The notes beneath the pieces are model-generated. The model saw only the letters and a list, made by a program, of their open reading frames with translations, did no database searches and had not been told where the DNA came from. This document shows, in pieces, positions 34,692 through 54,439 of a DNA stretch of 64,000 nucleotides. The DNA comes from an uncultured Sulfitobacter sp. Its GTDB lineage: Bacteria; Pseudomonadota; Alphaproteobacteria; Rhodobacterales; Rhodobacteraceae. The stretch lies in NCBI GenBank assembly GCA_963422245.2, contig CAXMWW010000032.1:181500-245499 (forward strand), written 5' to 3'. The first letter of the stretch is position 1. Every line of letters starts with the position of its first letter. The position numbers and the translations under genes are program-made.

Positions 34692-34823
34692 GGGCCGCAT
34701 CCTTGTTCTATTCCGACAGAATTGCATTTGAGCGACCGATTTGCTTGTCCGGGGGCGAACATCGCGGGTGGAGAAGTGGCGGGAAAGGCTTGACCTTGCC
34801 CGGTTGGCGCGTTCCGGTGCGGC

Positions 34824-37115: not shown

Positions 37116-37128
37116 TTTGCGTCCTTCC

Positions 37129-38754: not shown

Positions 38755-39695
38755 ACCCGCTTTGCAAAGCGCGGGTCAAGCGTGTCGCGCAGACCGTCGC
38801 CGAGCATGTTCACGGCCAGCACCGTCACAGCGAGGATCACGCCGGGATAGAGGATCTGGTGCGGGTGTAGTTGGAAGTTTTCGCGCGCGACGCCCATGAT
38901 GTTGCCCCAAGTGGGGATTTCATCCGCCGGGATGCCGAGGCCGAGGAAGCTGAGGATCGCTTCGACGATGATGGCAGAGGCGACGATGAAGGTACCCTGC
39001 ACGATCAGGGGCGCGACCGTGTTGGGCAGCACGTGGCGCGAAAGCAGCAGGTGCGTGGGGGTACCAGCGCAGATGGCGGCCTCCACATAGGGTTCTTCGC
39101 GGATGGATAGAACGATGGAGCGGACGAGCCTGACCACGCGTGGCACCTCTGGCACCACGATGGCGATAATGACTGATCCGAGGCCTGCGTTGAAGACCGA
39201 GACCACCGCAATGGCCAAGAGGATCGCGGGGATGGCCATGAGGCCATCCATGATCCGCATGATGATCCCGTCGAGCGCGCGGAAGTAGCCCGCGATCAGG
39301 CCTAGAATCATGCCGATGGCAATAGCAATAGAAGCCACAGCTGCGCCAACGATCAGCGAGACACGCGCTCCATAGATTACGCGGGAATAGATGTCGCGGC
39401 CCAAAGAGTCCGTGCCGAGGTGGTAGGTGACTGGGATCTTCACGCGCCCTTCGTCGGTGTAGATGCGGGTTTCACCCTCAAACCCCGGTGCGGCAAGGCG
39501 GTTGGCCGGAGAGATTGCATTGGGGTCCTGCGTGCCCAGGAAGGGGGCCATGATCGCCATCGCGCAGACGATGATCACCAGCGCGCCGCCGATCATCACG
39601 GAGGGGTGGCTGAGCATCCGGTTGAGGGTCTGCCGGAGTGGAGAGGCCCCTTTGGCTTCAGGTACTTCGGGTGCAGAGGTGGTGACAACCGACAT
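38751..39695 (-). CDS. Peptide-type ABC transporter permease (DppC-like)
   Basis: LGTDSLGRD, YVEAA EAA loop, WGNI. Confidence 0.92.
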   Translation of the reverse strand: MSVVTTSAPEVPEAKGASPLRQTLNRMLSHPSVMIGGALVIIVCAMAIMAPFLGTQDPNAISPANRLAAPGFEGETRIYTDEGRVKIPVTYHLGTDSLGRDIYSRVIYGARVSLIVGAAVASIAIAIGMILGLIAGYFRALDGIIMRIMDGLMAIPAILLAIAVVSVFNAGLGSVIIAIVVPEVPRVVRLVRSIVLSIREEPYVEAAICAGTPTHLLLSRHVLPNTVAPLIVQGTFIVASAIIVEAILSFLGLGIPADEIPTWGNIMGVARENFQLHPHQILYPGVILAVTVLAVNMLGDGLRDTLDPRFAKRV

Positions 39696-40636
39696 CAGTA
39701 GCGGATCCTTGGGTCGAGCACGGTGTAGCTGAGGTCAATCACCAGATTGATCAGCACGTAGATGAAGGAAAAGAGCAGCACGACTGCCTGAATGGCCGGG
39801 AAGTCGCGGTTGAGCACGGCCTCAACTGTCAGCAGGCCAAGGCCGGGGATGTTGAAAACGCTTTCGGTCACCACGACGCCGCCGATGAGGATGGCAAAGG
39901 CAAAGCCGATCACCGTCACGATGGGTACGGCCGCATTGCGCAGGGCGTGGCGGATCAGAACCTTGTTTTCGGTCTGGCCCTTGGCGCGGGCCGTGCGGAT
40001 GTAGTCCTCGCCCAGCACCTCCAAAACCGAGGTGCGGGTCATCCGGGCGATGAAGGCGACAAAGATGATCGACAGCGCGATGGCGGGCAGGATCAGGTGT
40101 TGGATCCACGGGCCCAGGCCGTCTGCCATGCGCTTGTAGCCCTGCACCGGGAACCAGTCGAGCTTGATGGAGAAGAGGTAGACCAGACCAAAGCCGATCA
40201 CGAAGACGGGGATCGAAAAGCCCAGCACGGAAAAGCCCATGACCACGCGGTCCATCCAGCTGCCTTGCTTGTAGGCGGCGATCACACCCATCGGTACAGC
40301 GATGGCAACGGTCATGATGATGGTGACAAGCGACAGCGACAGTGTGGGTTCAATGCGCGCAGCGATCAGCTCGCTCACTTGTTTCTTGAAGAAAAAGCTT
40401 TCGCCCAGATCGCCCTGCAACAGGTTGCCTGCCCAGGTAAAGAATTGCTGGATCAGCGGCTGGGTGAGGCCCAGCTTGTCGCGGATTTCGGCGATCTGCG
40501 CCTCAGACGCAAAGTCGCCTGCGATCATCGCGGCGGGGTCGCCCGGTGTGAGGCGCAACAGCAGGAAAATGAAGATCGCGACAAACAGCATGACGGGGAT
40601 CGTCGCAAGCAGTCGCTTGATCAAGTAGAATGCCAT
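39695..40636 (-). CDS. Peptide-type ABC transporter permease (DppB-like)
   Basis: LQGDLGES, DYIRTARAKG, RHALRNA, VTESVF. Confidence 0.92.
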   Translation of the reverse strand: MAFYLIKRLLATIPVMLFVAIFIFLLLRLTPGDPAAMIAGDFASEAQIAEIRDKLGLTQPLIQQFFTWAGNLLQGDLGESFFFKKQVSELIAARIEPTLSLSLVTIIMTVAIAVPMGVIAAYKQGSWMDRVVMGFSVLGFSIPVFVIGFGLVYLFSIKLDWFPVQGYKRMADGLGPWIQHLILPAIALSIIFVAFIARMTRTSVLEVLGEDYIRTARAKGQTENKVLIRHALRNAAVPIVTVIGFAFAILIGGVVVTESVFNIPGLGLLTVEAVLNRDFPAIQAVVLLFSFIYVLINLVIDLSYTVLDPRIRY

Positions 40637-40707
40637 GGGGGCCCCGGGGGTTCAGCAGAAGGGGACGCGCCGCCACCATGGGGGCGGCGGCGCGAAGTGA
40701 AGCGAGA

Positions 40708-42303
40708 TTACTTCTTTTCGATGTTCCAGAAGACCGGCACGCCAGCCTGCAGGTAGCCATCGATGTTGTTGCGCAGACCAGAGGCAGTGTTCCACTGACC
40801 CAGGTGGATGTGGGTCGGATACTCAACCCAGGCCGCCTGGATTTCGTCGATCAGACGCTTTTGATCCTCGACTGAGGTGGCCTTGGCGAACTGGTCACGC
40901 AGGTCCTCGATCTTTTCGCTGCAGGGCCAGCCGAACAGCGCCTGGTCACAGGATGAATTTAGGAAGGCCATGGCCAGCGGGTTGATCAGGTCACCCATGG
41001 TCCAGGCTGTGATGAACATGTTCCAGCCGCCGTCAGCGGGTGTTTCCTGCTTGGAGCGACGCGCCACAAGGGTGGACCAGTCCATCGATTCCATCTGCAC
41101 GTTCATTCCGATGGCTTCCATCAACTCCTTGGCCACAGGGGCAAGGTTGGTCAGCGACGGCACGTTGGTGGAGTGCATCAGCAGCACAGGCTCACCATTG
41201 TACCCGCCTTCTGCCAGCAGCTCCTTTGCCTTGGCAAAGTTCGATTGCAGCAGCCCATCCATATGGGCGGTGGATTCAAACGGCATGCCGCAACCAAAGA
41301 GCGCCATGCAGGTCCGGTAGAAGTCCGGGTTACCCACGGTCGCGTCCAGGAAGTCCTCCTGGTTGAACGCATAGAGCAGCGCCTGACGGACCTTGGGGTT
41401 GTCAAACGGTGGGTGCAACACGTTGAAGCGCGCGGTGTACTGGAAGCCTGGTGGGTTGGCGTCTTTCATGTAGGCCTCACCGCCGCCTTCGACCAAGGGC
41501 ACAAGGTCTGCGGGCACGGATTCGATGATATCGACCTCACCGGCGTTCAGCGCGTTGATTGCCTGCTGAATGTCGCGGTTGGGGGTCCATGTCACGCGGT
41601 CCACCTTGGCCAGCTTGCCGCCTGCGAAACCGGAGGCAGGCTCGGAGCGGGGCACGTATTCGTCGAACTTTTCGTAGACGACCTTAACGCCCGGTTCCCA
41701 TTCATCCAGGTTCATCTTGTAGGGGCCGGACCCGATGTATTCCTCAATCTGTTCGCTTCCCGGCGTGGCCGCGATGCGCGCAGGCATCATGAAGGGCACG
41801 TTGGACGAAGGCTTGGACAGGGCGAGTTCCACCAGACCGGTGGGCACGCTCAGCTTGAACACCACGTTCTTGTCGCCGTCAGCTGTCAGGCTTTCGGTGA
41901 AGCTCATCAGCTTCTGGCCCATGGCGTCCTTGGAGCCCCAGCGCTCAATGGAGGCCACGATGTCTGTCGCTGTCACTGGCTGCAGGTCATGCCACATCAG
42001 CCCGTCGCGCAGAGTGATCGTAACCGTCAGCCCGTCATCGGAGCGCGAGACGGTATCGACCATCTGAGGCTGGATATTGCCGTCCGCGTCCAGCGCAAAG
42101 AGCGTGTCATAGATCATGTAGCCGTGGTTGCGGCTGATGTAGGCGGTGGTCCAGATCGGGTCGAGGATCTTCAGACCCGAATGCGGCACCACCCGCAGTT
42201 CTGTTTCGGCCAGCGTCGGCGTCGCGGCGACACTCAGACCGAGGCTCAGGACGGCGGCCGCAGCGGCCCCCTTCACCAAACCGCGTGTTGCGATTCCAAA
42301 CAT
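40708..42303 (-). CDS. Family 5 ABC transporter substrate-binding protein
   Basis: Signal peptide, LDPIWTTAY, IYDTLF, IGSGPY, FDNPKVRQA. Confidence 0.92.
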   Translation of the reverse strand: MFGIATRGLVKGAAAAAVLSLGLSVAATPTLAETELRVVPHSGLKILDPIWTTAYISRNHGYMIYDTLFALDADGNIQPQMVDTVSRSDDGLTVTITLRDGLMWHDLQPVTATDIVASIERWGSKDAMGQKLMSFTESLTADGDKNVVFKLSVPTGLVELALSKPSSNVPFMMPARIAATPGSEQIEEYIGSGPYKMNLDEWEPGVKVVYEKFDEYVPRSEPASGFAGGKLAKVDRVTWTPNRDIQQAINALNAGEVDIIESVPADLVPLVEGGGEAYMKDANPPGFQYTARFNVLHPPFDNPKVRQALLYAFNQEDFLDATVGNPDFYRTCMALFGCGMPFESTAHMDGLLQSNFAKAKELLAEGGYNGEPVLLMHSTNVPSLTNLAPVAKELMEAIGMNVQMESMDWSTLVARRSKQETPADGGWNMFITAWTMGDLINPLAMAFLNSSCDQALFGWPCSEKIEDLRDQFAKATSVEDQKRLIDEIQAAWVEYPTHIHLGQWNTASGLRNNIDGYLQAGVPVFWNIEKK

Positions 42304-42400
42304 TAGAGTTCTCCCTGTTTTTGTAACGCTTCTTCGAACGTCCTCTAAAGGTTGCGATGAACACCCTAACGAGTCAATTTTTTGTTTGCATTTTTATGCA

Positions 42401-43849
42401 TCAATCAAAGGGATTTTCGACCTTTGGCCAATAATTTCCGCTTCGTTTGGTGTAGGGGATGTTCGCGTAGTCTGGCGTGATCGCCCCGGGGCCGGAGATA
42501 TAGATGACTTCCGCCGCGATGGGGCCAAAGCCCGCATGGAAGTGTTGCGAGGATTTGACCACGATGATCTTCATCTGACCCAGATCGAGGCCCAGATCGG
42601 TGAAGGCCTTGGGGTGGAAGGCCTGCGTGCGCTTGTCCGACAGGATGAGGTGCACGCCTTGCGTTTCCAGCCAGACGCCGGTGCCCATGGGCATTTGCGT
42701 CTCGCCCATCAGTTGGTGCATGTCCTCGCGGATGCCACGCACGGTGACCGTCAGGTCGATGGGGTCGCCTGACATCTCACCCACCTTGCCGCCAAGCCTG
42801 ATGGGCATTTCGGCGCCGATGCCGGCATCCTGACACATGTGCACGACAATTGGGTCCCAGAAGATGCCGAGGGCGACGTCGGTTAACCCCTTGTCCAGAA
42901 TGTCGCGCAAGACGAACGTGGAATCTGCGGGCGCACCACCGCCCGCGTTGTCGGCAAAGTCTGCCAGTACGATGGGGGTTTTGTTGGCTGCCGCCGCCTG
43001 GTTCACGGCCTCGTCGATGGAGGGCCAATCGGGGCGGAGCTGCTCGCGCAAGCTCCAGAGCCTTTCGCCGAATTCCTGGGCGGTAGCGGCGGCTTTGTTG
43101 GCGTCCCCATCCGAGATCGCCAGCATGCGCGTCCCCACACGAGGTGTGTCGCCCCAGGGAAACCCGTGGCTGAGGGAGAGCGACAGGATGCCATCCTTGC
43201 CTTCGCGCGCCTGCATGTCGTCCACGAAGGCGCGCATTGGCGCGCGGGTCGTGTGGTACATGGTGATCATCCGGCAGTCGTAGTCGCGCATGACGGGCGT
43301 GATCTTGCCCTCCGCCGTGTCAGCGGCCAGCGTGAACAGTTCGCGCGCGCGGTCGGGGCTGTCGGTGTGGGGGTATTCCTTGTAGGAAATGATCAGGTCG
43401 GCAGCTTTCAACATCTCGTCGGTGAGGTGATTGTGGGGGTCAATTTCCAGCCCGATCACAACGTCCGGCCCGGTTATAGCGCGGGCGCGGGTCAGCAGGT
43501 CGCCTTCGCAGTCGTCGTAGCCTTCAGCAATCATCGCGCCATGCATGGAGATCAGGAAGATGTCGGGTTTGGTGGCTGTCAAATCCTCAAGGATTTCATC
43601 GCGGTACCCCTCATAGGTGCTGCGGATCGTGGTACCTGCGGGCTGGGCGAAAGCGGCGAGGCTTTCGGTGACCTCCCAACTGCGCGCCGCTGCCATGCGC
43701 CGCCATTCGTGCATCGGGGCGGAAAAGAGGTTGGGCGTCTCGGAGGTGGCGTTGCGGCTGACGTAAGAACTTTCAAAGGCCAGCCGGCCCGTGGGGATCG
43801 GCGAGAAAGAGTTCGTTTCAGTGGCCAGACCGGCGATCAGGATTTTCAT
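42401..43849 (-). CDS. M81 family metallopeptidase (MlrC-like)
   Basis: ATETNSFS, HGAM, DCEGD, DPHNH, YKEYPHTD, DNAGGG, VKSSQHF. Confidence 0.9.
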   Translation of the reverse strand: MKILIAGLATETNSFSPIPTGRLAFESSYVSRNATSETPNLFSAPMHEWRRMAAARSWEVTESLAAFAQPAGTTIRSTYEGYRDEILEDLTATKPDIFLISMHGAMIAEGYDDCEGDLLTRARAITGPDVVIGLEIDPHNHLTDEMLKAADLIISYKEYPHTDSPDRARELFTLAADTAEGKITPVMRDYDCRMITMYHTTRAPMRAFVDDMQAREGKDGILSLSLSHGFPWGDTPRVGTRMLAISDGDANKAAATAQEFGERLWSLREQLRPDWPSIDEAVNQAAAANKTPIVLADFADNAGGGAPADSTFVLRDILDKGLTDVALGIFWDPIVVHMCQDAGIGAEMPIRLGGKVGEMSGDPIDLTVTVRGIREDMHQLMGETQMPMGTGVWLETQGVHLILSDKRTQAFHPKAFTDLGLDLGQMKIIVVKSSQHFHAGFGPIAAEVIYISGPGAITPDYANIPYTKRSGNYWPKVENPFD

Positions 43850-43965
43850 GGCGGGCTCTCCTTTGGGGGCGGGTGGCAGCAGGCGGATTGCAGCAGCGTT
43901 TGGCCGGCGGTTCAAGTCCTTGCCGCTGGGCACCGAGGACTCCCCGGGTAAAAGCCCAACAAACA

Positions 43966-44005
43966 CTTAACGCAGACGTGTCGAAATCGACGCGTCTGCG
44001 TTAAG
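43966..44005. repeat. 19 bp-arm hairpin sharing AGACGCGTC core with the palindrome family
   Basis: CTTAACGCAGACGTGTCGA-AA-TCGACGCGTCTGCGTTAAG, single T-G mismatch. Confidence 0.7.
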
Positions 44006-44052: not shown

Positions 44053-44820
44053 TCAGCTCAATCCCAGCCCGTCAGACTGCGCCAGTGCGGCCATGCCCCC
44101 GTCCACAACCACGTCGGTGCCCTTGATCCAATGGCTCTGTGGGCTGGCAAGAAAGACAATCACATCCGCCACTTCCTCCGGCAGTCCGGCGCGGCCTACC
44201 TTTGCGATGTTCCTCGCCACCCGGTCCCCGAAGGCCGCAACAAAGTCGTCCAGTATCCCGGTGCTGACGGCAGCGGGGCTGACCGCGTTCATCCGAAGTT
44301 CGCGGGCGATCATCTCTTGTGTCCGGGCCATCGTCAGGACGATTACAGCTTCCTTGGACAGGTTGTACGCACGGGTGGCGTCGATGCCTTGGTCCGCGAT
44401 GAAGGCGGGCAAATCGGCGGGCTCCAGCGCCATCAGCGCCTTCACCTGATCGATGTTATCCCGCCACATGGCCCCGGCGCGCGAAGCGGTGTTCACGATT
44501 GAGGCCCCGGGCGTCAGTTTGTCGAGCATGGCGTCGGTGAAAGCCTTGAGCCCGAAGTAGTTCACCCGCAACACAAGTTCCGCCATCCCGTCGCGCGGGG
44601 GCAGGCCTGCGTTGTTGATGAGCGCGTCAAAAGGGCCATCGGCTGTCGCAGCGGCTTCCTTAATGGAGGGCGGATCGCCCAGGTCGGTTTTGATCCAGCG
44701 GTCCACACCGGCACCGGGGTCCGTGATGTCAAAGGCAGTGACCGTATGGCCTGCGGCTTTGAGCTTGAGGGCGGTTTGCGCGCCAATGCCGGTGGCCGCG
44801 CCTGTCAGGGCTACGTGCAT
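44053..44820 (-). CDS. SDR oxidoreductase (coniferyl-alcohol/3-alpha-HSD-like)
   Basis: TGAATGIG, NNAG, VNYFG, YNLSK, NAVSP, VDGG. Confidence 0.88.
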   Translation of the reverse strand: MHVALTGAATGIGAQTALKLKAAGHTVTAFDITDPGAGVDRWIKTDLGDPPSIKEAAATADGPFDALINNAGLPPRDGMAELVLRVNYFGLKAFTDAMLDKLTPGASIVNTASRAGAMWRDNIDQVKALMALEPADLPAFIADQGIDATRAYNLSKEAVIVLTMARTQEMIARELRMNAVSPAAVSTGILDDFVAAFGDRVARNIAKVGRAGLPEEVADVIVFLASPQSHWIKGTDVVVDGGMAALAQSDGLGLS

Positions 44821-44838
44821 CTTGGGGTCTCCTGCATC

Positions 44839-46104
44839 TTATGTGTCCGCCGCTGCGTCTCGCAAAGACTTGGCCGCCGCGAAATAGCTGTTGCGGGCGG
44901 TTGTGTTGATCTGGGTCTCCGCCAGGGCCTCCATCGTTTCGGCTTTGAGCAAGTGAACAGGGATGCCCAAGGCCAGCAGGTGATCGCAAAGCTCCAACCG
45001 CCATTGTAGGTCGTCGGTGGCCTTTGCTGCTGCCAACATCGTATCCGTGCCACCCGCGAGGTCGGCCATATGTTGCGCGCGGGCACGGCTGGACAGCGTC
45101 CCGAGGTTGGTTGGGTTGCCATCGTACCAGCCCAACGTCCCGGTTGCGAAGGCGCGGGCGGACCAGTCGAGCCTGCCGTAGAACTCCTTGAGCCAGGGCC
45201 TGTCCGCGATGTCATCCGGCAGGGCAATCGTGGCGGCGATGTCGTCCATGCTGAGGCCTGCGTCCATGCCATCTGCCGTATGACGCATCACATGCAGGAT
45301 CGCGGCGCGGGTGGTGCTGAGCACCTCTGCGATTGCCACGCGTCCCACCACCGGGCGCGTGTGGCCGGGGGCGAGGATCTCCGCTTTCATGCTTTCCATC
45401 AGCGCGAGACTATCCGCCCAGGCCTGAAAGTCGCGGTAGGGCGTGCCGCGGATGGCATAGAGGTTGGGGAAGGTGTGATACCAGTTGTCACCCGAAAAAA
45501 GGACGCGCTGTTCGGGCAGCCAGACCATCAGGTGATCTGCGGTCTCTCCGGGGGCGTGGATCAGGCGCGCGGGGATGCCGCCCAGATCGATGTCACAATC
45601 CTCGGTTATGAACTGATTGGGCGGGATAAAGCCTGCGCCCATTCCCTCCATCGGGCGGTCGCCGGGGCCGAGGCCGAGGCTGATGCGCTGGTCCGGTGAA
45701 AGCCCGATGCCGAATTGCATCACGGTGCGTCGCATCAGGGCTTTGGCGGGGGTGATCGCATCGGGATCGACGCCCACCAGATCGGACTTGAAGAGGTGCG
45801 AGGCGATCACCGGCACGTCGTGCCCTTCGGCAAAAACGCTTGCGCCAGAAATGTGATCGCGGTGGCTGTGGGTCAGGATGATCCGGCCTACGGGTTTATC
45901 GGTACGTTCGCGAAATGCGGCGAGGATGTTTTCGGCCGCCTTTGTTGTCTCCGTAGTGTCGATGATCGTGAGGCTGTCCGCCCCTTCGATCATATGCACG
46001 TTAGAGGCCGCAAAGCCTACGGCGGTCCAGATGCCGGGGGCCAGTTCGATGACATCGCGGCGCAACTGTGCGTTATGTGCGACAAGATCCGGGTGGGCTT
46101 TCAT
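44839..46104 (-). CDS. Alkyl/aryl sulfatase of metallo-beta-lactamase fold (SdsA1-like, short form)
   Basis: THSHRDH, PGETADH, SGDNWY..FPNLYAIRG, PGH, GWYDGNP. Confidence 0.87.
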   Translation of the reverse strand: MKAHPDLVAHNAQLRRDVIELAPGIWTAVGFAASNVHMIEGADSLTIIDTTETTKAAENILAAFRERTDKPVGRIILTHSHRDHISGASVFAEGHDVPVIASHLFKSDLVGVDPDAITPAKALMRRTVMQFGIGLSPDQRISLGLGPGDRPMEGMGAGFIPPNQFITEDCDIDLGGIPARLIHAPGETADHLMVWLPEQRVLFSGDNWYHTFPNLYAIRGTPYRDFQAWADSLALMESMKAEILAPGHTRPVVGRVAIAEVLSTTRAAILHVMRHTADGMDAGLSMDDIAATIALPDDIADRPWLKEFYGRLDWSARAFATGTLGWYDGNPTNLGTLSSRARAQHMADLAGGTDTMLAAAKATDDLQWRLELCDHLLALGIPVHLLKAETMEALAETQINTTARNSYFAAAKSLRDAAADT

Positions 46105-47744
46105 TGGTCCGTGAACTTTTGATCGACTGTGCCGCGATAGGCGACCAGCAGTTCCTCGTCCACTTCCGTGCCGTCCGCCAGGAACGGCAGAATGCCCCGC
46201 CGCAGGGAGCGCCCGCGCATCGCTTTGAGGTCATCTTCGGATTTGGTGACGCGCTGAGCCAGCCGCCGCCCCCACTGCGCGAGGTGCCCATAGTGACGGT
46301 CGATGACCTCCGCGTGGGCATTGCCTTTGCCGAGGTCGTGGAACTCCTGCGGGTCCTCTTGCAGGTCAAACAGCATGGGGCGAAAGCCGCCTTCGGCGTG
46401 CATCATCTTGTAGCGCCCATCAAAGACCATGAAGAGCCGCGCGTCGCGGGGCTCCACCCCCAGTTTTGCGGCCTGAGGTGTGACGGAGTAGTCGTATTCG
46501 CTGATCACATAGTTTCGCCAATCATCAGGGCTTTCACCACGCAGCCACGGCATCAGGGACCGCCCCTCCACGATGTGATCGGGCACCGTGCCGCCGCTGG
46601 CGTCGATGAAAGTAGCGGTCAGGTCGATGGATTCGACAAGCGCGTCACAGGTAGTGCCGCGTGTTGCGTCAGCCTGCGCCCGGGGACAATAGATGATCAT
46701 CGGGATTTTGACGCTGGGTTCGTGGAAAAGGTCCTTTTCCCCCATCCAGTGATCGCCCAGATAGTCGCCGTGGTCAGAGGTCAGCACGATCATGGTGTCC
46801 TCCATGCGGCGTGTGTCCTCCAGATGATCCAGCAGGCGACCCAGCTGGTCGTCGCATTGCTTGATCAGGCCCATGTAGGCGGGGATCACCTTGTCGCGGA
46901 CCTCATCGCGATGAAAGGCCTGCGCGATCTTGTTGCTTTGGTAGGCCCCATAGACGGGATGCGGGTCTTCACGTTCGACATCGTGGCGCACCGGCGCGGG
47001 CACGTGGTTGGGGCCGTACATGTCGTGGTAGGGCGCGGGCACGATGTAGGGCCAGTGGGGCTTGATGTAGCTGACGTGGGCGAGCCACGGGCCTTGCTGT
47101 TCTTCGATGAATTCGATGGTCCTGGTGGTCAGCCAGGGGGTCTCGGAATCTTCTTCGCGGATGTTGGCGGGCTTGTCGGCGTTGCCCATGATCCAGCCTG
47201 TTGCGATTTGATCGCCCTCGACACCGGCATTGGCAAAGTTGGCCCAGGGGTTTTCGGCCTCGTAGCCTTTGGACTTTAGGTATTCGTTGTAAGGCGAGCG
47301 TTTTTCGTCATAGAACCCGTCGGGGCCCTGACCCCAAAGGCCATCATCCCTGATCCAGGTGTCAAAGCCGCACTCGGCCTGCCGCGCGCCGATCACGCTG
47401 TCGGCACTCAGACCCAGTCGCGCCATGCCTTCGGCGTCCGCTTTCATGTGGGTCTTGCCGATCAGCCAACAGTCGACACCGATCTTGCGCAGATGATCCC
47501 CCAGCGTCTGTTCGCCCACACGCAGCGGAAAGCCGTTCCAATGCGCCCCGTGGGAGGACGCATAGCGCCCGGTATAGGTGCACATCCGTGACCCGCCACA
47601 AACCGGGGATTGCACATACGCATTCGTGAACCGCACACCTTTCGCTGCCACGCGGTCAAAGTTTGGCGTGTGCAGGCTGGGGTGCCCCGCGCAGCTGAGG
47701 TAATCGAACCTGAGCTGGTCGTACATGATAAAGAGGATATTCAA
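46101..47744 (-). CDS. Formylglycine-type sulfatase / phosphonate monoester hydrolase family
   Basis: TTG start; DQLR, SPVCGGSRMCTYTGRY (Cys-type FGly motif), GKTH, KPHWP, TSDHG. Confidence 0.9.
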   Translation of the reverse strand: MNILFIMYDQLRFDYLSCAGHPSLHTPNFDRVAAKGVRFTNAYVQSPVCGGSRMCTYTGRYASSHGAHWNGFPLRVGEQTLGDHLRKIGVDCWLIGKTHMKADAEGMARLGLSADSVIGARQAECGFDTWIRDDGLWGQGPDGFYDEKRSPYNEYLKSKGYEAENPWANFANAGVEGDQIATGWIMGNADKPANIREEDSETPWLTTRTIEFIEEQQGPWLAHVSYIKPHWPYIVPAPYHDMYGPNHVPAPVRHDVEREDPHPVYGAYQSNKIAQAFHRDEVRDKVIPAYMGLIKQCDDQLGRLLDHLEDTRRMEDTMIVLTSDHGDYLGDHWMGEKDLFHEPSVKIPMIIYCPRAQADATRGTTCDALVESIDLTATFIDASGGTVPDHIVEGRSLMPWLRGESPDDWRNYVISEYDYSVTPQAAKLGVEPRDARLFMVFDGRYKMMHAEGGFRPMLFDLQEDPQEFHDLGKGNAHAEVIDRHYGHLAQWGRRLAQRVTKSEDDLKAMRGRSLRRGILPFLADGTEVDEELLVAYRGTVDQKFTDQ

Positions 47745-47827
47745 AGGGTTAGGCTCCTCTAGCGCGGCGGGGCGGTGTCTCGATTCGACGGGGATTGTGA
47801 CAAGTTGGTGAGCCTGGCACCAGCTTC

Positions 47828-47840
47828 CTTGTTTAACAAG
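47828..47840. promoter_or_regulatory. Candidate operator between divergent sulfatase and dehalogenase genes
   Basis: AT-rich palindrome CTTGTT-T-AACAAG. Confidence 0.35.
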
Positions 47841-47939
47841 TGAACTGTTGGGATTGATCCCCCGTTCTGGCGACCTTACCCTTGACCATACGCAGAGTGC
47901 TTCATCCAGCAGCTGCGCCAGCCAGACAGGGACACAGAC

Positions 47940-50900
47940 GTGGGAACACGGTTTTTCTCAACCAAAGATCGCCCGTTTCACTTGGGCCCCTATCCGTTGG
48001 AGCGCTTGCCGCGTGTGGCAGAGGCCGATCTGAGCGCCGTGCCTGCATTCCGGCCCTTGGATTTTCGCAGGCTTGAGACGCCCCATTCGCTGGTCAATGC
48101 GATGGGCGAATATCAGGCGATGATGGATGTGCTGCGCGACGGTGTGGTGAACCCGACGTTGGCTGATGCGCCCGAAGACCCGGATGCGCGCGCCCAGCAC
48201 ATGAAGGCTTTTGGATATTTTCAGGATGCCTCCATGATGGGTGTATGCCGGCTGCCGGACGGGGCGCGTTTGGCTGAGCCCACGCGGAACCCCGACATCA
48301 ACCGGCTGGTGGATGATATCCGCACCAAGCAGACCAAAACGCTGGCCACCGGCATTGATGTGATCATGGCCGAGCTGAAGGAAAGCACGGCCCGTCCGCC
48401 CAGCCCCATTGCGGGCCACACCCATTGCCTTGTGATCCTGTTTGAAAATTCCCGTCCGCCCCGCGAAGGGGAGCCGGGGTATGAGTGGATTGCCGGGGCC
48501 GATGGTCACCGGTCTGCCTTGCGGGCGACGGAAACAGCGGTGATCCTGTCGAACTATCTGCATCTGTTGGGGTTCGAGGCCAAGGCGCATACGGCGACGT
48601 CCTCGGATGTTGACCTCAACCAGCTTGCTGTGGCGTCCGGGTTGGCGACGCCGGAGCTCGGCCGCTTATTTGCGCCATATGTGGGCGAGGGTTTTGGGCT
48701 GGCGGCCGTGACCACGAATATGGAGATCAGCCTGGACCAGCCACTGGCTCCCTGGTCCGAGCAGAGCTATGGCCCTGCTTGGTGGGTCGGCAAAGGCACG
48801 GTGAAGAGTGCGTTCAACCGCGATGCTTACCGCAAGCGGCGCTATGTGGATGGCGCGCACCCTTTCGAGACGCTCAAGCGGGTGGAGGAGCCCACGACTT
48901 TCATTGATGAAGCCCGCGTGGCCCGGGTACCGAAACGGGCGGATATGTTTGCACGCTCCCAATTCGGGGAGTTGGGCAAGAAGACGCAGGAGGGCACGCG
49001 CGGCGGCTGGTATGCGCGCAAGAGCGCCCATGCCTTTGCGCAGCGGCGTATTCTGGGGGCCTTTGTCCTGCTGCAGGGCGGGGAAGGGGAGCCGGAAGCG
49101 CCGAAACCCACCGAGGCCGAACGCAATGCGCAAAACGTCAAGGCGGCGAGCTATTTTCTGGGCGTCGATGCAGTTGGCATTTCGCGCTGTCCGGACTGGA
49201 CGTGGTATAGTCATGATGCCACGGGGGCTGAACTGATCCCGCCCCATGACAACGCGGTCTCCATGATCATTGATCAGGGGTATGAGACGATGGAGGGGGC
49301 CTCTGGCGATGACTGGATCGCCGTGGCGCAATCCATGCGGGCCTATCTGCGGTTCTCATTGCTCGGCGGTGTAATTGCGCGCCAAATCCGCAATATGGGC
49401 TATGCCGCCAAGGCTCATACGGTGATGGATGGCGAGGTGCTGCAACCACCCTTGTTGCTGCTGAGCGGGCTGGGCGAGGTCAGCCGCATTGGCGAGGTCA
49501 TTTTGAACCCGCTTCTGGGGCCGCGGCTGAAATCGGGTGTGGTGACCACGGATATGCCGTTGGCCCACGACAAACCTATCGACTTTGGCCTGCAGAATTT
49601 CTGCGAAAGCTGCAAGAAGTGCGCGCGGGAGTGTCCTTCGGGTGCGATCACGGCTGGGCCGAAGTTGATGTTCAACGGCTATGAGATCTGGAAGTCTGAC
49701 AGCCAGAAATGCACTACCTACCGGATCACCACCGAAGGTGGGGCGATGTGTGGCCGCTGCATGAAGACCTGCCCGTGGAACCTGGAAGGGATTTTCGCAG
49801 AGAAGCCTTTTCGCTGGCTGGCGATGAACCTGCCTTCTGCTGCTCCTGCGCTGGCGCGGCTGGATGACAAGGTTGGCAACGGCGGGCTGAACGATGCCAA
49901 GAAGTGGTGGTGGGATTTGGAGCTGAAGCAGGATGGCGGCTACAAGGCTCCGGCTGCCCCGGTGAACCGCCGCGACCTCGATGTGGGGCTGGAGGTCAAG
50001 TACGAAGACCAGACGCTGGCCGTTTACCCCGCGCACCTGACCCCCTGGCCCTGGCCGTACCCCTTTGCGATGGACCGCGAGGCGGGGATCAAGGCCTATG
50101 AGGAGCTGATCACACCCGTCGAGTACAAGGCGCGGCTTGCACGGGGTGAAACCGAAGGGTTGGCGCATGAAAGGCGCAGCTTTGACGATGCGCCGGTGGT
50201 TATGGCCCGCGTGTCGAAGGTGGAGGCGATGACAGCGGATGTCACCAAGTTTGAGTTCACCGCATGGGACGGCGCGCCTTTGCCGGCCTGGACGGCGGGT
50301 GGGCATCTGGATGTGGTCGTCACGCCTGATTTTTTGCGCCAGTACTCGATGTCTGGGGACCCGGCAGATACGTCCAAATATCAGATCGGCGTGCTGCGCG
50401 AGGATGAAGGACGCGGCGGCTCCAAGATGCTGCACCGTATTTTTAACGAAGGGCGGCGTGTGTTCCTTTCCAAACCGATAAACCATTTCGAGCTGGTGGA
50501 GGATGCGACAAAGACCTTTCTGATGGGCGGTGGCATCGGGATCACGCCAATGATCGCATTCGCCCACCGTCTGCACGCACTGGGCGCGGATTTTGCGCTG
50601 CACTATTCGGTCAGTTGTCGGGAGGATGCCGGATTTCTGGAGGATCTGGCGGCGATGCCCTGGGCGGACAGGGTGCACTACCACGTCTCGGACGAAGGGA
50701 CGCGGGCGGATTTGGATGCGGTGTTGAGGGGGTATGCCGACGGCTGGCACGTCTACACCTGCGGGCCGGACCGTTACATGACGGGCGTGATGGATGCGGC
50801 GGAGCGGCAGGGTTTTCCCGAAGAGGCGCGACATCTGGAGTATTTCTCTGTCCCTGAGCAGCCGGAGTATGTGAACCACATATTCCGGGTGAAGCTGGCG

Positions 50901-51140
50901 CGGGACGGTCGGGTGTTTGAGGTGCCCGAAGATCAGTCGATATCGGATGTGCTGCTGGCGCATGGTGTCCCGGTGGATGTGAAGTGCGCGGACGGCATTT
51001 GTGGGGTTTGCAAATGCGGCTATCAGGGTGAGGTGGAGCACCGCGATTTTGTGCTCTCCAAGGCGCAGCGCGAAGGCGAGATCATCACTTGTCAGTCCCG
51101 CGCGGCGGCTGGGGTCGAGGAGATTACACTCGATATTTGA
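47940..51140 (+). CDS. rdhA: Self-sufficient catabolic (BhbA-type) cobalamin reductive dehalogenase: RdhA core + FAD/NAD(P)H reductase + [2Fe-2S], 1066 aa
   Basis: RPFHLGPYPLERL N-terminus, GLGEVSRIG, CESCKKCARECP and CGRCMKTCP 4Fe-4S motifs, RQYSM, GRGGS, GGIGITP, YTCGP, CADGICGVC..C; no Tat signal. Confidence 0.9.
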   Translation: MGTRFFSTKDRPFHLGPYPLERLPRVAEADLSAVPAFRPLDFRRLETPHSLVNAMGEYQAMMDVLRDGVVNPTLADAPEDPDARAQHMKAFGYFQDASMMGVCRLPDGARLAEPTRNPDINRLVDDIRTKQTKTLATGIDVIMAELKESTARPPSPIAGHTHCLVILFENSRPPREGEPGYEWIAGADGHRSALRATETAVILSNYLHLLGFEAKAHTATSSDVDLNQLAVASGLATPELGRLFAPYVGEGFGLAAVTTNMEISLDQPLAPWSEQSYGPAWWVGKGTVKSAFNRDAYRKRRYVDGAHPFETLKRVEEPTTFIDEARVARVPKRADMFARSQFGELGKKTQEGTRGGWYARKSAHAFAQRRILGAFVLLQGGEGEPEAPKPTEAERNAQNVKAASYFLGVDAVGISRCPDWTWYSHDATGAELIPPHDNAVSMIIDQGYETMEGASGDDWIAVAQSMRAYLRFSLLGGVIARQIRNMGYAAKAHTVMDGEVLQPPLLLLSGLGEVSRIGEVILNPLLGPRLKSGVVTTDMPLAHDKPIDFGLQNFCESCKKCARECPSGAITAGPKLMFNGYEIWKSDSQKCTTYRITTEGGAMCGRCMKTCPWNLEGIFAEKPFRWLAMNLPSAAPALARLDDKVGNGGLNDAKKWWWDLELKQDGGYKAPAAPVNRRDLDVGLEVKYEDQTLAVYPAHLTPWPWPYPFAMDREAGIKAYEELITPVEYKARLARGETEGLAHERRSFDDAPVVMARVSKVEAMTADVTKFEFTAWDGAPLPAWTAGGHLDVVVTPDFLRQYSMSGDPADTSKYQIGVLREDEGRGGSKMLHRIFNEGRRVFLSKPINHFELVEDATKTFLMGGGIGITPMIAFAHRLHALGADFALHYSVSCREDAGFLEDLAAMPWADRVHYHVSDEGTRADLDAVLRGYADGWHVYTCGPDRYMTGVMDAAERQGFPEEARHLEYFSVPEQPEYVNHIFRVKLARDGRVFEVPEDQSISDVLLAHGVPVDVKCADGICGVCKCGYQGEVEHRDFVLSKAQREGEIITCQSRAAAGVEEITLDI

Positions 51141-51202
51141 ACATTTTACGGGAGCGGGCTTTGGCGCTTTTTCCGCGCTGAAATTGTGTGCCTATGCGAT
51201 TT

Positions 51203-51240
51203 AGACACCGCTGTGTAGACGCGTCTACAGAGCGGTGTCT
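51203..51240. repeat. 38 bp perfect palindrome, copy C
   Basis: AGACACCGCTGTGTAGACGCGTCTACACAGCGGTGTCT equals its reverse complement. Confidence 0.9.
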
Positions 51241-51435
51241 GTAATTTTGAGGGGCGTAAAATTCTGTTATTTATGACATTTTCAGCGATTTGCGTTCATG
51301 CAATGGCTCACATGAAGTCCGAATCGAGTGTTTTCCGTCTTAGTGGTGCTAAGTGCTCCGATTGAACACCGGATCGTCTGAGAGACGGAAACCATCGTCA
51401 GGATCACGCATCAAATCGGCAAGCTGCGACGCTTC

Positions 51436-51852
51436 TCAATCCGGTCTACCGGGTTCATCCGGATTGCTGGAGAAAATTGCAATCTTGTTGCCCTGCGGAT
51501 CCCGCAGGTAGCTCACAAAAAACGTCGGGCCATAATCCGCACGGAACCCGGGCTGGCCTTCATCCGACCCGCCCGCTGCAAGGGCTGCTGCATGCAGGTC
51601 ACGCACCTGCTGCTGGGAACGCGCCTCAAAAGCCACCATGTTGCCATTCCCGGCTGAAGCCGCTGCGCCATTAAACGGTCTTTTCACATAGAAATCCGGG
51701 CCCGCAGGCCGACCATCGGGACCCACCGGCAATACATAGCTCAGGTCACCGTGGTAGTGCTCCAGTTCATATCCAAGCGCGGGCAGGAAGGCGGAATAGA
51801 ACCGTTCTGCCGCGGCCATATCGTCAACACCGATGGTGATATAGGCGATCAT
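51436..51852 (-). CDS. VOC (glyoxalase/bleomycin resistance) family protein
   Basis: YITIGVDD, AGNGNMVAF, GGSDEGQPG, YLRDPQGNK. Confidence 0.9.
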   Translation of the reverse strand: MIAYITIGVDDMAAAERFYSAFLPALGYELEHYHGDLSYVLPVGPDGRPAGPDFYVKRPFNGAAASAGNGNMVAFEARSQQQVRDLHAAALAAGGSDEGQPGFRADYGPTFFVSYLRDPQGNKIAIFSSNPDEPGRPD

Positions 51853-51863
51853 CTCATCGTCCT

Positions 51864-53033
51864 TCAGTAAGGCAGGCCGACGTAGTTTTGCGCGAGCACG
51901 GATTGCGCCTCATCGTTGGATCTCAAGAACGCCACCTCAGCCATCTGCATCTTGTGGTCAAACTCCGACTGATGCGGAAAATGGTGAAGCAGGGACGTCA
52001 TCCACCAACTGAACCGTTCCGCCTTCCAGACCCGCGCCAGCGCGCGTTCGGAGTAACGCGCCACACCTTGATCGTCACCCTCAAGGTACTGCTGCTTCAA
52101 GGCCTCTGCCAGATAATAGACATCGCTGGCAGCTGTATTGAGCCCCTTGGCCCCGGTCGGCGGCACGATATGCGCGGCATCGCCGCACAGGAACAATCGG
52201 CCCCATTGCATTGGCTCGCACACGAACGACCGCAAAGGGGCAATGGATTTCTCGATGGAGGGGCCGGTTTCAAGCGTATCAGCAAATTCATCGGGGATCC
52301 GGCGGCGCAACTCGTCCCAGAACGCCTGATCGGACCAGTTGGCTGGATCATCGCCCGCCTCGCACTGCACGTAGTATCGGCTGAGGTTCGCATTGCGCAT
52401 GGAGCACAGGGCAAAGCCCGCGTCTGAGTTGGCGTAGATCAGCTCTTCATGCACGGGGGGCGTTTCCGACAGGATGCCGAGCCAACCGAAAGGGTAGACC
52501 TTCTCAAACTCGCGCCGCGCCTCTGCCGGGATGGTCTGGCGGCTGACGCCGTGAAAGCCGTCGCAGCCTGCGACATAGTCACAATCGATGCGGTGGTTTT
52601 GCCCGCCTTGGGTGAAGGTTACATAAGGCGCGTCGGTTTTGGGGTCGTCGATCACCACGTCTTCGACCTCGTAGATCACCTGCGCCCCATCTGCCTCGCG
52701 CCCGGCGTAGAGGTCGGCGGTCACCTCTGTCTGGCCATACACCATGACGGTCGTGTTGGTGTGGTGCGCCAGATCGATGCGGATGCGGTCGTCGTTGTAG
52801 GCAATGACCGTGCCGTCATGCACAAAGCCTTCGTGGTCCATGCGGTCCCCCAGCCCCAAGTCGCGCAGTTGGTTGACTGTACCAACCTCCAGCACACCCG
52901 CGCGGATGCGGCCCAGCACGTAGTCCTTGGTCTTGCGCTCTAGCACCACGTTGTCGATCCCGGCCCGCGTGAGATGCTGACCCAGCAAGAGCCCCGACGG
53001 CCCTCCGCCAATGATGACAACCTGTGTGCGCAT
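51864..53033 (-). CDS. pobA: 4-hydroxybenzoate 3-monooxygenase
   Basis: GGGPSG, RIRAGVLE, GCDGFHG, YPFGWLG, GDAAHIVPPTGAKGLN, NYVGLPY. Confidence 0.96.
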   Translation of the reverse strand: MRTQVVIIGGGPSGLLLGQHLTRAGIDNVVLERKTKDYVLGRIRAGVLEVGTVNQLRDLGLGDRMDHEGFVHDGTVIAYNDDRIRIDLAHHTNTTVMVYGQTEVTADLYAGREADGAQVIYEVEDVVIDDPKTDAPYVTFTQGGQNHRIDCDYVAGCDGFHGVSRQTIPAEARREFEKVYPFGWLGILSETPPVHEELIYANSDAGFALCSMRNANLSRYYVQCEAGDDPANWSDQAFWDELRRRIPDEFADTLETGPSIEKSIAPLRSFVCEPMQWGRLFLCGDAAHIVPPTGAKGLNTAASDVYYLAEALKQQYLEGDDQGVARYSERALARVWKAERFSWWMTSLLHHFPHQSEFDHKMQMAEVAFLRSNDEAQSVLAQNYVGLPY

Positions 53034-53208
53034 GTCTGATCCTTCCCAAGTGGAAGTTCTGCACCAAGACAAAGACATATGCCAGTCATCCGTTAAAGGT
53101 TTCCAACCACACATAAGGGTCGACTGACCTCAGTGCTTTTCAACCGGGGCCATTCCATGGATGATGCGGCCAAGGGTTGCCTTAAGGCGCGGCAGCGGAG
53201 GGATTTGC

Positions 53209-53910
53209 ATGAAACAGGCAGTCATCACCGGAGGCACGCGGGGCATCGGCGCGGGGGTCGCGCGGGTGCTGGCCACCTCGGGTTGGTCCGTGGTGGCGGC
53301 GTCCGTCTCCCAGGCGGAGATTGACGCATTTGAGCCGCAAGATGGGATCAGCACCGCGCTTCTTGATGTGACCGATCAGGCCTCAGTGGATGCGCTTTTT
53401 GGCGCGCAAACCCGGCTCGATGCGCTGGTGAATTGCGCCGGTATTCTTGTGCGGGGTGAAGAGTACGATATCGACATCTTTGCAAAGGTGCTGGACGTCA
53501 ACCTGACCGGCACCATGCGCTGCTGTCTGGCGGCACGCTCTTTGCTGTCTGAAAGCAAAGGGGCGATTGTGAACACCGCGTCCATGCTCAGCACCTTTGG
53601 CGGGCCGCTTGTGCCTGCCTATTCGGCCTCAAAGGGCGGCGTGGCGCAGCTGACCAAGGCGCTGGCGGGCAAATGGGCGGAGGACGGCATCCGCGTCAAC
53701 GCCATCGCGCCCGGTTGGATTGAGACGGAAATGACCCAAGGCTTGCGTGACAGCCCCGAGCGTACCGCAGGCATCATGGCCCGTACCCCCATGAACCGTT
53801 GGGGGCGGCCAGAGGAAGTGGGCGCGCTGGTTGCGTGGCTCTTGAGTGAAAACGCCAGCTTTGTCACCGGGTCGGTCTACCCGGTTGATGGTGGCTATCT
53901 GGCGATGTGA
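53209..53910 (+). CDS. SDR oxidoreductase
   Basis: [27 protein letters not shown]. Confidence 0.9.
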
Positions 53911-53920
53911 GGAGAGAAAG

Positions 53921-54439
53921 ATGAAAGACGAAGATACATCACGCATGCCCTACCAACTGCCGTTCCCCAAGGACGCGCAGGAGGAGATCGTGATCCCCAA
54001 TGCCGCAAGCGAAGATGAACGGCTGTGGGTGAAGCAGGCGGAGAACGTCTGGTTCCGCCCGCTCTGTCTGAACCGGTCGCAGGGGTATTGGATGAACCTG
54101 CTGAAGGTGAAGAAGGCGGGCGTACTGTCGCGCCACCGTCACCCGCAGCCGGTGCATGGTTTCGTGCTGAAAGGGCGCTGGCACTATCTGGAACACGACT
54201 GGACCGCAGAGGAGGGCGGCTATGTTTATGAGCCCCCGGGAGAGACCCACACGCTGGTTGTGCCGGATGATGTGGAGGAAATGATCACTTATTTTCAGGT
54301 CAATGGCGTGATGTGCTATGTCGATCCTTGGGGAGAAGTCACCGGATACGAGGACGTGTTCAGCAAGATCGACCTGTGCCGCAAGCACTTTGCAGAAGTG
54401 GGACTGGGCGAAGACTACGTGGATCAGTTTATTCGGTAG
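53921..54439 (+). CDS. 2,4'-dihydroxyacetophenone dioxygenase-family cupin
   Basis: RHRHPQPVHG, GRWHYLEHDW, EPPGETHTL cupin motifs as in DAD; GGAG RBS. Confidence 0.83.
   Translation: MKDEDTSRMPYQLPFPKDAQEEIVIPNAASEDERLWVKQAENVWFRPLCLNRSQGYWMNLLKVKKAGVLSRHRHPQPVHGFVLKGRWHYLEHDWTAEEGGYVYEPPGETHTLVVPDDVEEMITYFQVNGVMCYVDPWGEVTGYEDVFSKIDLCRKHFAEVGLGEDYVDQFIR

Follow-up and report, generated by a model that had tools for sequence, protein, structure and literature searches.

Reductive dehalogenases (RdhA) of the NpRdhA type need a free hydroxyl group ortho to the halogen, which is bound through K488 and R552, and these two residues together with F291, S422, M423 and Y426 are the key residues of NpRdhA and JtRdhA (excerpts of PMC10463259). 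In the bhb cluster the 4-hydroxybenzoate released by BhbA is hydroxylated by PobA, followed by protocatechuate cleavage (same excerpts), and a roseobacter RdhA debrominates 2,6-dibromophenol (excerpts of PMC13101508). Roseobacter RdhAs are known to debrominate model bromophenols, and no natural substrate or pathway is named for them in the literature searched. Among sulfatases, the arylsulfatase/phosphonate monoester hydrolase set that includes SpAS1 and SpAS2 derives its formylglycine nucleophile from an active-site cysteine, and a Lys/His pair serves as the criterion separating arylsulfatases from phosphonate monoester hydrolases (excerpts of PMC5488252). SpAS2 efficiently cleaves the model aryl sulfate 4-nitrophenyl sulfate, its kcat/Km being 2e5 (excerpts of PMC12917725). 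Here we analyse positions 44053-54439 of a 64,000-nucleotide stretch of DNA from an uncultured Sulfitobacter sp. (contig CAXMWW010000032.1; the whole stretch is called the window). In this region an operon for a predicted SpAS-type arylsulfatase, a metallo-β-lactamase-fold (MBL) sulfatase-like protein and a short-chain dehydrogenase/reductase (SDR1) diverges from a gene for a self-sufficient RdhA. Further downstream are pobA and a second dehydrogenase gene (SDR2) paired with a cupin gene resembling 2,4'-dihydroxyacetophenone dioxygenase (DAD).

The new result of this work is the recurrent linkage of the sulfatase and rdhA genes. In the literature searched we found no description linking a reductive dehalogenase with an arylsulfatase. 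By term search of the accessible portions of both papers, the word 'sulfatase' is absent from PMC10463259 and PMC13101508; PMC13101508 mentions neither 'neighbor' nor 'gene cluster' there, and PMC10463259 gives genomic context for NpRdhA only.

Linkage of sulfatase and rdhA genes across the Rhodobacteraceae

Neighbourhoods of about 20 kb around 100 RdhA homologs, one per genus, were searched with every protein of the window. The complete comparison set comprised these loci, the neighbourhoods of those 80 sulfatase orthologs in GTDB that are closest to the window protein (75-88% identity), 20 DAD neighbourhoods and 401 genus representatives of the family; for the linkage count a family-wide sulfatase search was combined with the RdhA coordinates. 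A sulfatase ortholog with 68-78% identity is present in 6 of the 100 RdhA loci, and two more linked loci were obtained from contig coordinates. Over the family, the sulfatase gene lies within 5.2 kb of rdhA in 9 of the 74 genera holding both genes, i.e. in about one in eight, while random placement predicts 0.37 linked genera (Poisson P ~3e-10). In every linked genus the sulfatase is on the 5' side of rdhA. The first-pass annotation of this DNA, made from the sequence alone, had associated the two genes at this single locus, and the family-wide count bears this out. Over the 401 genomes, co-occurrence of sulfatase and RdhA corresponds to an odds ratio of 6.1, calculated without phylogenetic correction.

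Three architectures are found. The genes are divergent, with gaps of ~200 bp, in the window and in locus L036, which carries the same trio as the window (sulfatase | RdhA-PobA). In L156 and in L052/L162 (strain HIMB11) rdhA is the terminal gene of the sulfatase operon, arranged as sulfatase-MBL-SDR1-RdhA and sulfatase-MBL-TRAP-TRAP-SDR1-RdhA, respectively, where TRAP denotes transporter genes; the SDR1/RdhA junction measures ~5 nt in L156 and L162. A direct tandem on one strand is present in L098, L232, L068, L231 and L194, with junctions of ~0 to 410 nt, the sulfatase/RdhA junction being ~0-10 nt in L098 and 51 nt in L232. Of these tandems, L194 resembles the HIMB11 arrangement minus MBL, TRAP and SDR1, with sulfatase and RdhA kept. 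The tandem pairs are flanked by unrelated housekeeping genes, e.g. for an OmpA-family protein, UbiA and an RNA methyltransferase. On the RdhA tree the 9 linked loci require 8 state changes, and on the sulfatase tree 11 linked loci require 7 changes. Both the scatter on the trees and the unrelated flanks demonstrate that the linkage is not one inherited block. We also considered a single RdhA-specialised subclade of sulfatases and rejected it, as the linked sulfatases are dispersed over their tree.

The distribution of RdhA itself is much broader. At least 147 of the 401 genus representatives have a full-length homolog (52-81% identity), and self-sufficient RdhAs are present in more than a third of the roseobacter genera sampled. 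Their genomic context is highly variable: clustering of all neighbours gives no family present in more than 11 of the 100 loci, the commonest being TRAP DctM, MarR regulators and paralogs of MTTB. Homologs of other proteins in these loci number 4 for PobA, 1 each for the MBL protein, the SDR1 ortholog and the glyoxalase/VOC protein described below, and 0 for the DAD-like cupin and TetR. In a wider count, PobA stands beside RdhA in 5 of 102 loci, L032, L036, L045 and L046 among them. This RdhA-PobA link, which the first-pass annotation had also proposed, holds in these loci and fits the established pathway of the Comamonas bhb cluster, for which the same link has been described before.

As a side observation, the window contains an MTTB-family (trimethylamine methyltransferase-like) gene at 33138-34727, 13 kb upstream of rdhA, and in 8 of 100 genera rdhA has an MTTB-family gene at a distance of no more than 8 kb. 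This recurrence probably reflects merely the abundance of this paralog family in roseobacters.

All parts of the region are found together in no other locus among the 100 RdhA, 80 sulfatase and 20 DAD neighbourhoods. As a whole, the 10-kb arrangement occurs in this genome only, which makes it a mosaic rather than a single conserved system. It comprises three modules, namely sulfatase-MBL-SDR1, RdhA with PobA, and the SDR2-cupin pair, two of which probably work together. The first-pass annotation had combined all of these enzymes in a single catabolic funnel and named co-conservation in other genomes as one way to check it. In the neighbourhood comparison the links sulfatase-RdhA, sulfatase-MBL-SDR1 and RdhA-PobA recur, while the full set does not, and the branch formed by SDR2 and the cupin drops out.

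Gene layout and predicted enzymes

Genes were called using the open reading frame (ORF) listing together with profile searches (Pfam, NCBIfam/TIGRFAM) and sequence matches to the PDB. All genes previously named in the region are present, intact and correctly placed, and their described arrangement stands with three corrections: a glyoxalase/VOC gene is located between rdhA and pobA, pobA is convergent with rdhA, and the strand of the sulfatase operon continues past the operon. The operon proposed earlier is indeed a tight three-gene unit on the minus strand. It starts with the sulfatase gene (46101-47744), whose stop overlaps the start of the MBL gene (44839-46104) by 4 nt, and ends with SDR1 (44053-44820), which starts 18 nt past the MBL gene end. 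The sulfatase gene diverges from rdhA (47940-51140, plus strand) across an intergenic region of 195 bp (47745-47939), which was read directly from the sequence.

The sulfatase (547 aa) matches the Pfam Sulfatase family (E 5e-43) and is closest to SpAS2 of Silicibacter pomeroyi (PDB 4UPL, 60% identity, E 4e-228), followed by SpAS1 (PDB 4UPI, E 4e-182). Its nucleophile motif SPVCGGSRM reads C-G-G-S-R, compared to C-G-S-S-R in SpAS2, and deviates from the canonical C-x-P/A-x-R. The segment GKTHM aligns with GKTHM of SpAS2, so that the Lys/His pair (K101/H103 in SpAS1) is kept. The protein stays below the cut-offs of the PehA family NF045661 (301 vs 900 bits) and of choline sulfatase TIGR03417 (195 vs 433 bits), and no signal peptide is visible in its sequence. 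Based on the Cys motif and the Lys/His pair it is predicted to be a cytoplasmic SpAS-type S1 (formylglycine) arylsulfatase. The host genome contains two genes for the formylglycine-generating enzyme (FGE). It also holds ~12 S1 sulfatase genes (contigs C34, C27, C18 and C37), two of which encode paralogs ~53% identical to the window sulfatase.

The MBL protein (421 aa) combines the Lactamase_B domain (PF00753, E 3e-22) with the Alkyl_sulf_dimr domain (PF14863, E 2e-29) and carries the HxHxDH motif of type III alkylsulfatases, its HSHRDH aligning to HSHVDH of PSdsA. Matches to SdsA1, Pisa1 and YjcS have E values of 1e-35 to 1e-41. The chain ends at residue 421, right after the dimerisation domain, and thus lacks the SCP2-like C-terminal domain and falls short of the full length of ~630-670 aa; its orthologs are likewise 420-423 aa long. 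Because this domain is absent we call the protein alkylsulfatase-like rather than a full family member. Of its earlier description as an MBL-fold sulfatase, the MBL and dimerisation domains are thus found and the SCP2-like domain of type III alkylsulfatases is not. In SdsA1 the SCP2-like C-terminal domain accommodates long alkyl chains. We infer that a small polar sulfate ester is a more likely substrate of the short protein than a detergent-like one.

SDR1 (255 aa, adh_short_C2) resembles alcohol/hydroxysteroid-type dehydrogenases. It scores 239 bits against the 'coniferyl-alcohol dehydrogenase' model NF009092, 3 under the cut-off of 242, and its best PDB match is 3α-hydroxysteroid dehydrogenase/carbonyl reductase 1FJH (E 1e-26). 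Orthologs stand alongside the sulfatase in 15 of the 80 sulfatase loci and directly before rdhA in L156 and L162.

The 80 sulfatase orthologs belong mostly to roseobacters, and also to Roseibium, Hoeflea, Granulosicoccus and Geminicoccaceae. Among their loci the MBL gene is directly downstream in 18, RdhA is present in 5, PobA in 2 and DAD in none. The fullest operon, in a Shimia sp. (L133:9033-18041), has a divergent IclR gene followed by sulfatase, MBL, a TAXI-TRAP permease, a TAXI binding protein, SDR1 and a fatty-acid-hydroxylase-family protein; the permease in operons of this type is fused and ~700 aa long. Compared to this, the sulfatase-MBL-SDR1 genes of the window are a reduced copy, without transporter and regulator, of the TAXI-TRAP operon, in which an IclR regulator is a frequent companion. 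An operon of the type IclR | sulfatase-MBL-TAXI-TRAP-SDR1 is conserved in 16 of the 80 loci (within L131-L210), and is found outside roseobacters as well, in Hoeflea, Rhizobiaceae and Geminicoccaceae. In the literature searched we found no description of it.

RdhA (1066 aa) scores 197.4 bits against TIGR02486 (cut-off 160.35). Residues 159-735 match NpRdhA (4RAS, E 9e-167; also 6ZXU) and residues ~756-1065 match phthalate dioxygenase reductase (PDR; 2PIA, E 1e-48). The protein contains two 4Fe-4S motifs (Fer4_16/Fer4_7, residues 555-614) and a Fer2 domain (986-1055), consistent with a fused FMN/NAD(P)H/2Fe-2S reductase of the PDR type. In the HMMER alignment to 4RAS all six key residues of NpRdhA (F291, S422, M423, Y426, K488 and R552) are identical. 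There is no twin-arginine motif in the RdhA N-terminus (MGTRFFSTKDRPFHLG), and the ORF listing holds no rdhB-like small membrane ORF adjacent to rdhA. Judged by family score, active-site residues, fused reductase and the lack of a Tat signal, the protein is predicted to be a self-sufficient catabolic dehalogenase of the BhbA/JtRdhA type, in agreement with the B12 dehalogenase initially assigned to this ORF. A 38-bp near-perfect palindrome with an ACGCGT core, AGACACCGCTGTGTAGACGCGTCTACAGAGCGGTGTCT, was read directly from the sequence at 51203-51240, 62 bp downstream of the rdhA stop.

PobA, 4-hydroxybenzoate 3-monooxygenase, is encoded on the minus strand (51864-53036, ORF to 53114). It scores 668.3 bits against TIGR02360 (cut-off 538.7), covering model positions 1-390 of 390 and aligning from residue 28, which identifies it by profile as an unambiguous equivalog. 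Given the N-terminus MRTQVVIIGGGPSG, the true start is probably Met27 at 53036. This is the sole pobA copy in the genome. Between rdhA and pobA the 138-aa glyoxalase/VOC-superfamily protein (51436-51852, minus strand) matches Pfam Glyoxalase with E 1.5e-5 and has no NCBIfam match. Ring-cleavage genes are absent from the window.

Beyond the sulfatase operon the minus strand continues, after a gap of 86 bp, with an unrelated run of genes at 35946-43966. It encodes an MlrC/M81 peptidase, a Dpp-type binding protein, two permeases, a fused double ATPase and an M20 peptidase, and looks like a separate peptide-uptake module. We considered the MlrC, peptide-ABC transporter and M20 genes as possible members of the sulfatase operon and rejected them, as they are not kept with the sulfatase or RdhA elsewhere; an MlrC homolog is near the sulfatase in 1 of 80 loci, at 28% identity.

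The SDR2-cupin pair

The third module is located on the plus strand, divergent from pobA across ~170 bp. It consists of SDR2 (53209-53910; ORF from 53161, likely start Met17; adh_short_C2, E 2e-58), whose KduD- and BudC-like scores are under the respective cut-offs, and the DAD-like cupin (53921-54439; ORF from 53846, likely start Met26). The cupin aligns with DAD (PDB 4P9G) with an E value of 3e-43 and 45% identity over 160 residues. Its HRHP and GETHT segments correspond to HYHP and GEGHT of 4P9G, and thus the HxH...H motif is kept, including the His residues that we take to be the metal ligands in this alignment. The similarity to DAD asserted earlier is therefore real, while the aromatic-catabolism context attached to it is not borne out, since PobA is found in none of the 20 DAD loci.

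Orthologs of the cupin (74-94% identity) are present in 28 of the 401 genera, this genome counted. In 15 of the 20 DAD loci an SDR2 ortholog with at least 65% identity is located directly upstream of the cupin gene, at -0.6/-0.7 kb on the same strand, and SDR2 homologs at other positions or of lower identity are present in 3 further loci. DAD lies near RdhA in 0 of 100 loci and near the sulfatase in 0 of 80, and neither PobA nor RdhA is near DAD in any of the 20 loci. Of the 13 genomes that hold both RdhA and DAD, the genes are adjacent only in this one; in the other 12 the distance is at least 260 kb or the genes are on separate contigs. A gene for 2-keto-3-deoxygalactonokinase (DGOK) precedes the pair in 5-7 of the 20 loci, and genes for KDPG aldolase, D-2-hydroxyacid dehydrogenase, an FMN-dependent dehydrogenase and sugar ABC or TRAP transporters are further neighbours, likewise in 5-7 of 20. 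The placement of SDR2 and the cupin in the funnel is thus not supported: DAD is absent from the RdhA and sulfatase loci and the two genes form a separate conserved pair. This independent module probably belongs to sugar-acid metabolism, and its location next to pobA is no argument for its taking part in 4-hydroxybenzoate formation. The DAD homolog may act on a sugar-derived α-hydroxyketone instead of an aromatic ketone. As a caution, homology by itself should not be taken to place a DAD-like cupin in an aromatic pathway.

Proposed pathway and comparison with known systems

While gene identities, catalytic residues and the recurring sulfatase-rdhA linkage are shown by the comparisons above, the substrate of the coupled genes, the order of steps and their co-regulation we infer as follows. 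In operons bearing the TAXI-TRAP genes, a small organosulfate would be taken up, its sulfate ester or esters removed and the freed alcohol oxidised. The arylsulfatase would act first, with the MBL enzyme taking a second, benzylic or alkyl sulfate, and SDR1 would then oxidise the alcohol. The cobalamin-dependent RdhA is predicted to remove bromine ortho to the free phenolic hydroxyl group, using NAD(P)H via the fused reductase. PobA would turn 4-hydroxybenzoate, where it is formed, into protocatechuate, and ring cleavage would be left to genes elsewhere in the genome. The order of these steps turns on the requirement of NpRdhA-type enzymes for a free hydroxyl ortho to the halogen, bound by K488/R552, which was reportedly established by Payne et al. 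in 2015. Because these enzymes bind the free phenol or phenolate via K488 and R552, an aryl-sulfated bromophenol would not be an RdhA substrate before the arylsulfatase unmasks the hydroxyl group. This need for prior desulfation would explain selection that keeps the sulfatase immediately upstream of rdhA.

Sulfated red-algal bromophenols appear to suit this enzyme set. Lanosol-4,7-disulfate is a documented red-algal metabolite with an aryl and a benzylic sulfate (PMC9322897). We name it as an example of the substrate class and not as a claim. It also has a benzyl alcohol carbon and two bromines, and its full processing would lead to protocatechuate-type products.

The divergent intergenic region contains a hairpin with a 9-bp stem (47802-47826) and an inverted repeat, CTTGTT-T-AACAAG (47828-47840), which could be an operator; neither element recurs in the corresponding region of L036. 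No sigma-70 consensus is found in these 195 bp. A single promoter-like site came out of the promoter scan, and it does not belong to the genes of interest; the count of terminator-like sites is not above that of shuffled controls. In the HIMB11-type operon one short unitig bridges the SDR1/RdhA junction, which is too weak to show co-transcription. As a separate observation, 52-60% of the words sampled from L162:8500-21500 are present at ≥95% identity in each of four seawater metatranscriptomes, and a population carrying sulfatase-MBL-TRAP-SDR1-RdhA is thus abundant in situ.

We see an even chance that the first two modules couple in the sense that sulfated bromophenols are desulfated, then debrominated by RdhA and passed on to PobA, with the SDR2-cupin pair unrelated to this route. 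Several observations weigh against such a coupling. Sulfatase and RdhA are apart in ~88% of the genera with both, and a sulfatase ortholog is missing from ~91-92% of the 100 RdhA loci sampled. As most RdhA loci are without the sulfatase and most shared genera are unlinked, neither enzyme depends on the other in general, and the coupling is an option, not a rule. Likewise, 50 of the 80 sulfatase orthologs compared occur on their own. At 26 RdhA loci of other alphaproteobacterial families (24 unfused NpRdhA-type, 2 fused) no sulfatase, PobA or DAD is found within ~8 kb; distant S1 sulfatase paralogs are near RdhA in 3 of 100 loci, i.e. at chance level only, and taken together these two results make the association specific to the fused roseobacter RdhA and this sulfatase ortholog group. 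The window operon has no TRAP importer and no adjacent regulator, and there is no shared operator between its intergenic region and the equivalent region of L036 or the regions upstream of rdhA in the linked loci. A search of sequencing runs retrieved the region in two DNA runs of the same organism only and in no RNA runs, and metatranscriptome coverage of the HIMB11-type operon, built from short unitigs, is even across operon and flanks. Lanosol is an imperfect fit, as only one of its two bromines is ortho to a hydroxyl group. Finally, the canonical pcaH (protocatechuate 3,4-dioxygenase beta subunit) is below its curated cut-off genome-wide, and the candidates for ring cleavage elsewhere in the genome are a LigB-type extradiol dioxygenase (C34:81799-82596) and two intradiol-dioxygenase-like genes.

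Three other explanations have to be weighed against this coupling. The genes may have no functional connection, independent catabolic genes having gathered in a variable chromosomal region where adjacency reflects flexible-region residence or leftover ancestral synteny. This would agree with RdhA neighbour families never exceeding 11 of 100 loci, with the ~91% of RdhA loci that have no nearby sulfatase ortholog, with the unique arrangement of the window and with the lack of a shared regulator or operator. We regard it as unlikely, however, given 9 linked genera where 0.37 are expected, a sulfatase that is always 5' of rdhA, mostly co-directional and at gaps of 0-400 nt, three architectures with unrelated flanks and linked loci scattered on both gene trees; that distant S1 paralogs reach chance level only is also at odds with mere co-residence. 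Alternatively, the coupling may be real and its chemistry different. The substrates could be sulfated iodinated or chlorinated tyrosine-derived metabolites, or the operon could act mainly on alkyl, steroid or benzyl sulfates that carry no halogen, RdhA being added now and then to detoxify halogenated congeners and not to gain carbon. The best solved relative of SDR1 is a 3α-hydroxysteroid dehydrogenase, the MBL partner belongs to the alkylsulfatase family, and most canonical operons are without RdhA, one of them carrying a fatty-acid-hydroxylase-family gene; moreover, the excerpts of PMC5488252 and PMC12917725 do not state physiological substrates of the SpAS enzymes. Such substrates nevertheless seem doubtful to us, as the characterised RdhA relatives act on ortho-brominated phenols and hydroxybenzoates and the pocket residues are kept, and as 4-hydroxybenzoate is the product suggested by the adjacency of PobA in the window and in L036. 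That the MBL protein has no SCP2-like domain, the part of SdsA1 that accommodates long alkyl chains, also argues against lipid-like sulfates.

The full funnel of the first-pass annotation would have SDR2 and the DAD-like enzyme cleave a 2,4'-dihydroxyacetophenone-type side chain to (halo)4-hydroxybenzoate for RdhA and PobA, so that seven enzymes form one pathway. The product of DAD, 4-hydroxybenzoate, is the substrate of PobA, which together with the 45% identity of the cupin to authentic DAD, its kept metal-binding His residues and the divergent position of the pair ~170 bp from pobA speaks for it. We nevertheless consider it very improbable: the pair is beside PobA or RdhA in none of the 20 other loci, DAD is absent from the 100 RdhA and 80 sulfatase loci, in the 12 other genomes with RdhA and DAD the two genes share no contig or are separated by at least 260 kb, and the recurrent DAD neighbours are DGOK, KDPG aldolase, 2-hydroxyacid dehydrogenase and sugar ABC/TRAP transporters.

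Returning to the coupling of sulfatase and RdhA, a more specific version is that SpAS-type arylsulfatase and self-sufficient RdhA form a recurrent two-gene unit of marine roseobacters for sulfate-masked algal or invertebrate bromophenols, with desulfation as an obligatory first step. We put this forward tentatively. The unit is sometimes extended by the MBL sulfatase, the TAXI-TRAP importer and an SDR. The data suggest a catabolic RdhA pathway of the known kind, with a desulfation front end as the new element. If this is true, the very widespread aerobic roseobacter RdhAs would have a first natural class of substrates and a first pathway, and the marine cycling of organobromine and of organosulfate compounds would be connected. 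The SpAS arylsulfatases, used to date solely as models of catalytic promiscuity, would also gain a physiological role. As the linkage is independent of architecture and statistically strong, it leads to the testable hypothesis that many natural bromophenols arrive as sulfate esters and have to be unmasked first.

Compared with known systems, the window sulfatase shares C-G-x-S-R, the Lys/His pair and the cytoplasmic location with SpAS2 and SpAS1 of Silicibacter (Ruegeria) pomeroyi (excerpts of PMC5488252 and PMC12917725). It is a member of a sister group of orthologs, which share 68-88% identity with the window protein. The SpAS enzymes are presented in those excerpts with model substrates only, as examples of catalytic promiscuity, and their physiological role and gene context are not stated there. 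The MBL protein has the binuclear-metal MBL domain, the HxHxDH motif and the family-specific dimerisation domain in common with SdsA1 (2CFU), Pisa1 (2YHE) and YjcS (4PDX), but is without their N-terminal extension of ~90 residues and the SCP2-like domain, at low overall similarity (E 1e-40). The cupin has the same fold signature and H-x-H ... H motifs as the DAD of Alcaligenes sp. 4HAP (4P9G, 5BPX), from which it differs by its SDR partner, its sugar-acid context and the absence of a conserved link to pobA.

The window RdhA has the same fold and the same six active-site residues as NpRdhA (4RAS, 6ZXU), JtRdhA of Jhaorihella thermophila and the Roseobacter sp. RdhA A3X954, including the duplicated cobalamin-binding domain and two 4Fe-4S clusters. 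The C-terminal PDR-like reductase is shared with JtRdhA, while NpRdhA has no fused reductase. Characterised substrates of these three enzymes are ortho-bromophenols and 3,5-dibromo-4-hydroxybenzoate (excerpts of PMC10463259 and PMC13101508). A catabolic counterpart is BhbA with the bhb bromoxynil cluster of Comamonas sp. 7D-2 (Chen et al. 2013, as summarised in the excerpts of PMC10463259). Both systems have an oxygen-tolerant, catabolic and not respiratory RdhA fused to an NAD(P)H reductase, and in both 4-hydroxybenzoate would be carried onward to protocatechuate, with PobA adjacent in the window. The window, which is chromosomal and from a marine roseobacter, contains neither a nitrilase nor ring-cleavage genes. 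Where the bhb cluster, for which no sulfatase is reported in the excerpts of PMC10463259, has a nitrile-hydrolysing front end, the window has a sulfatase operon in its place.

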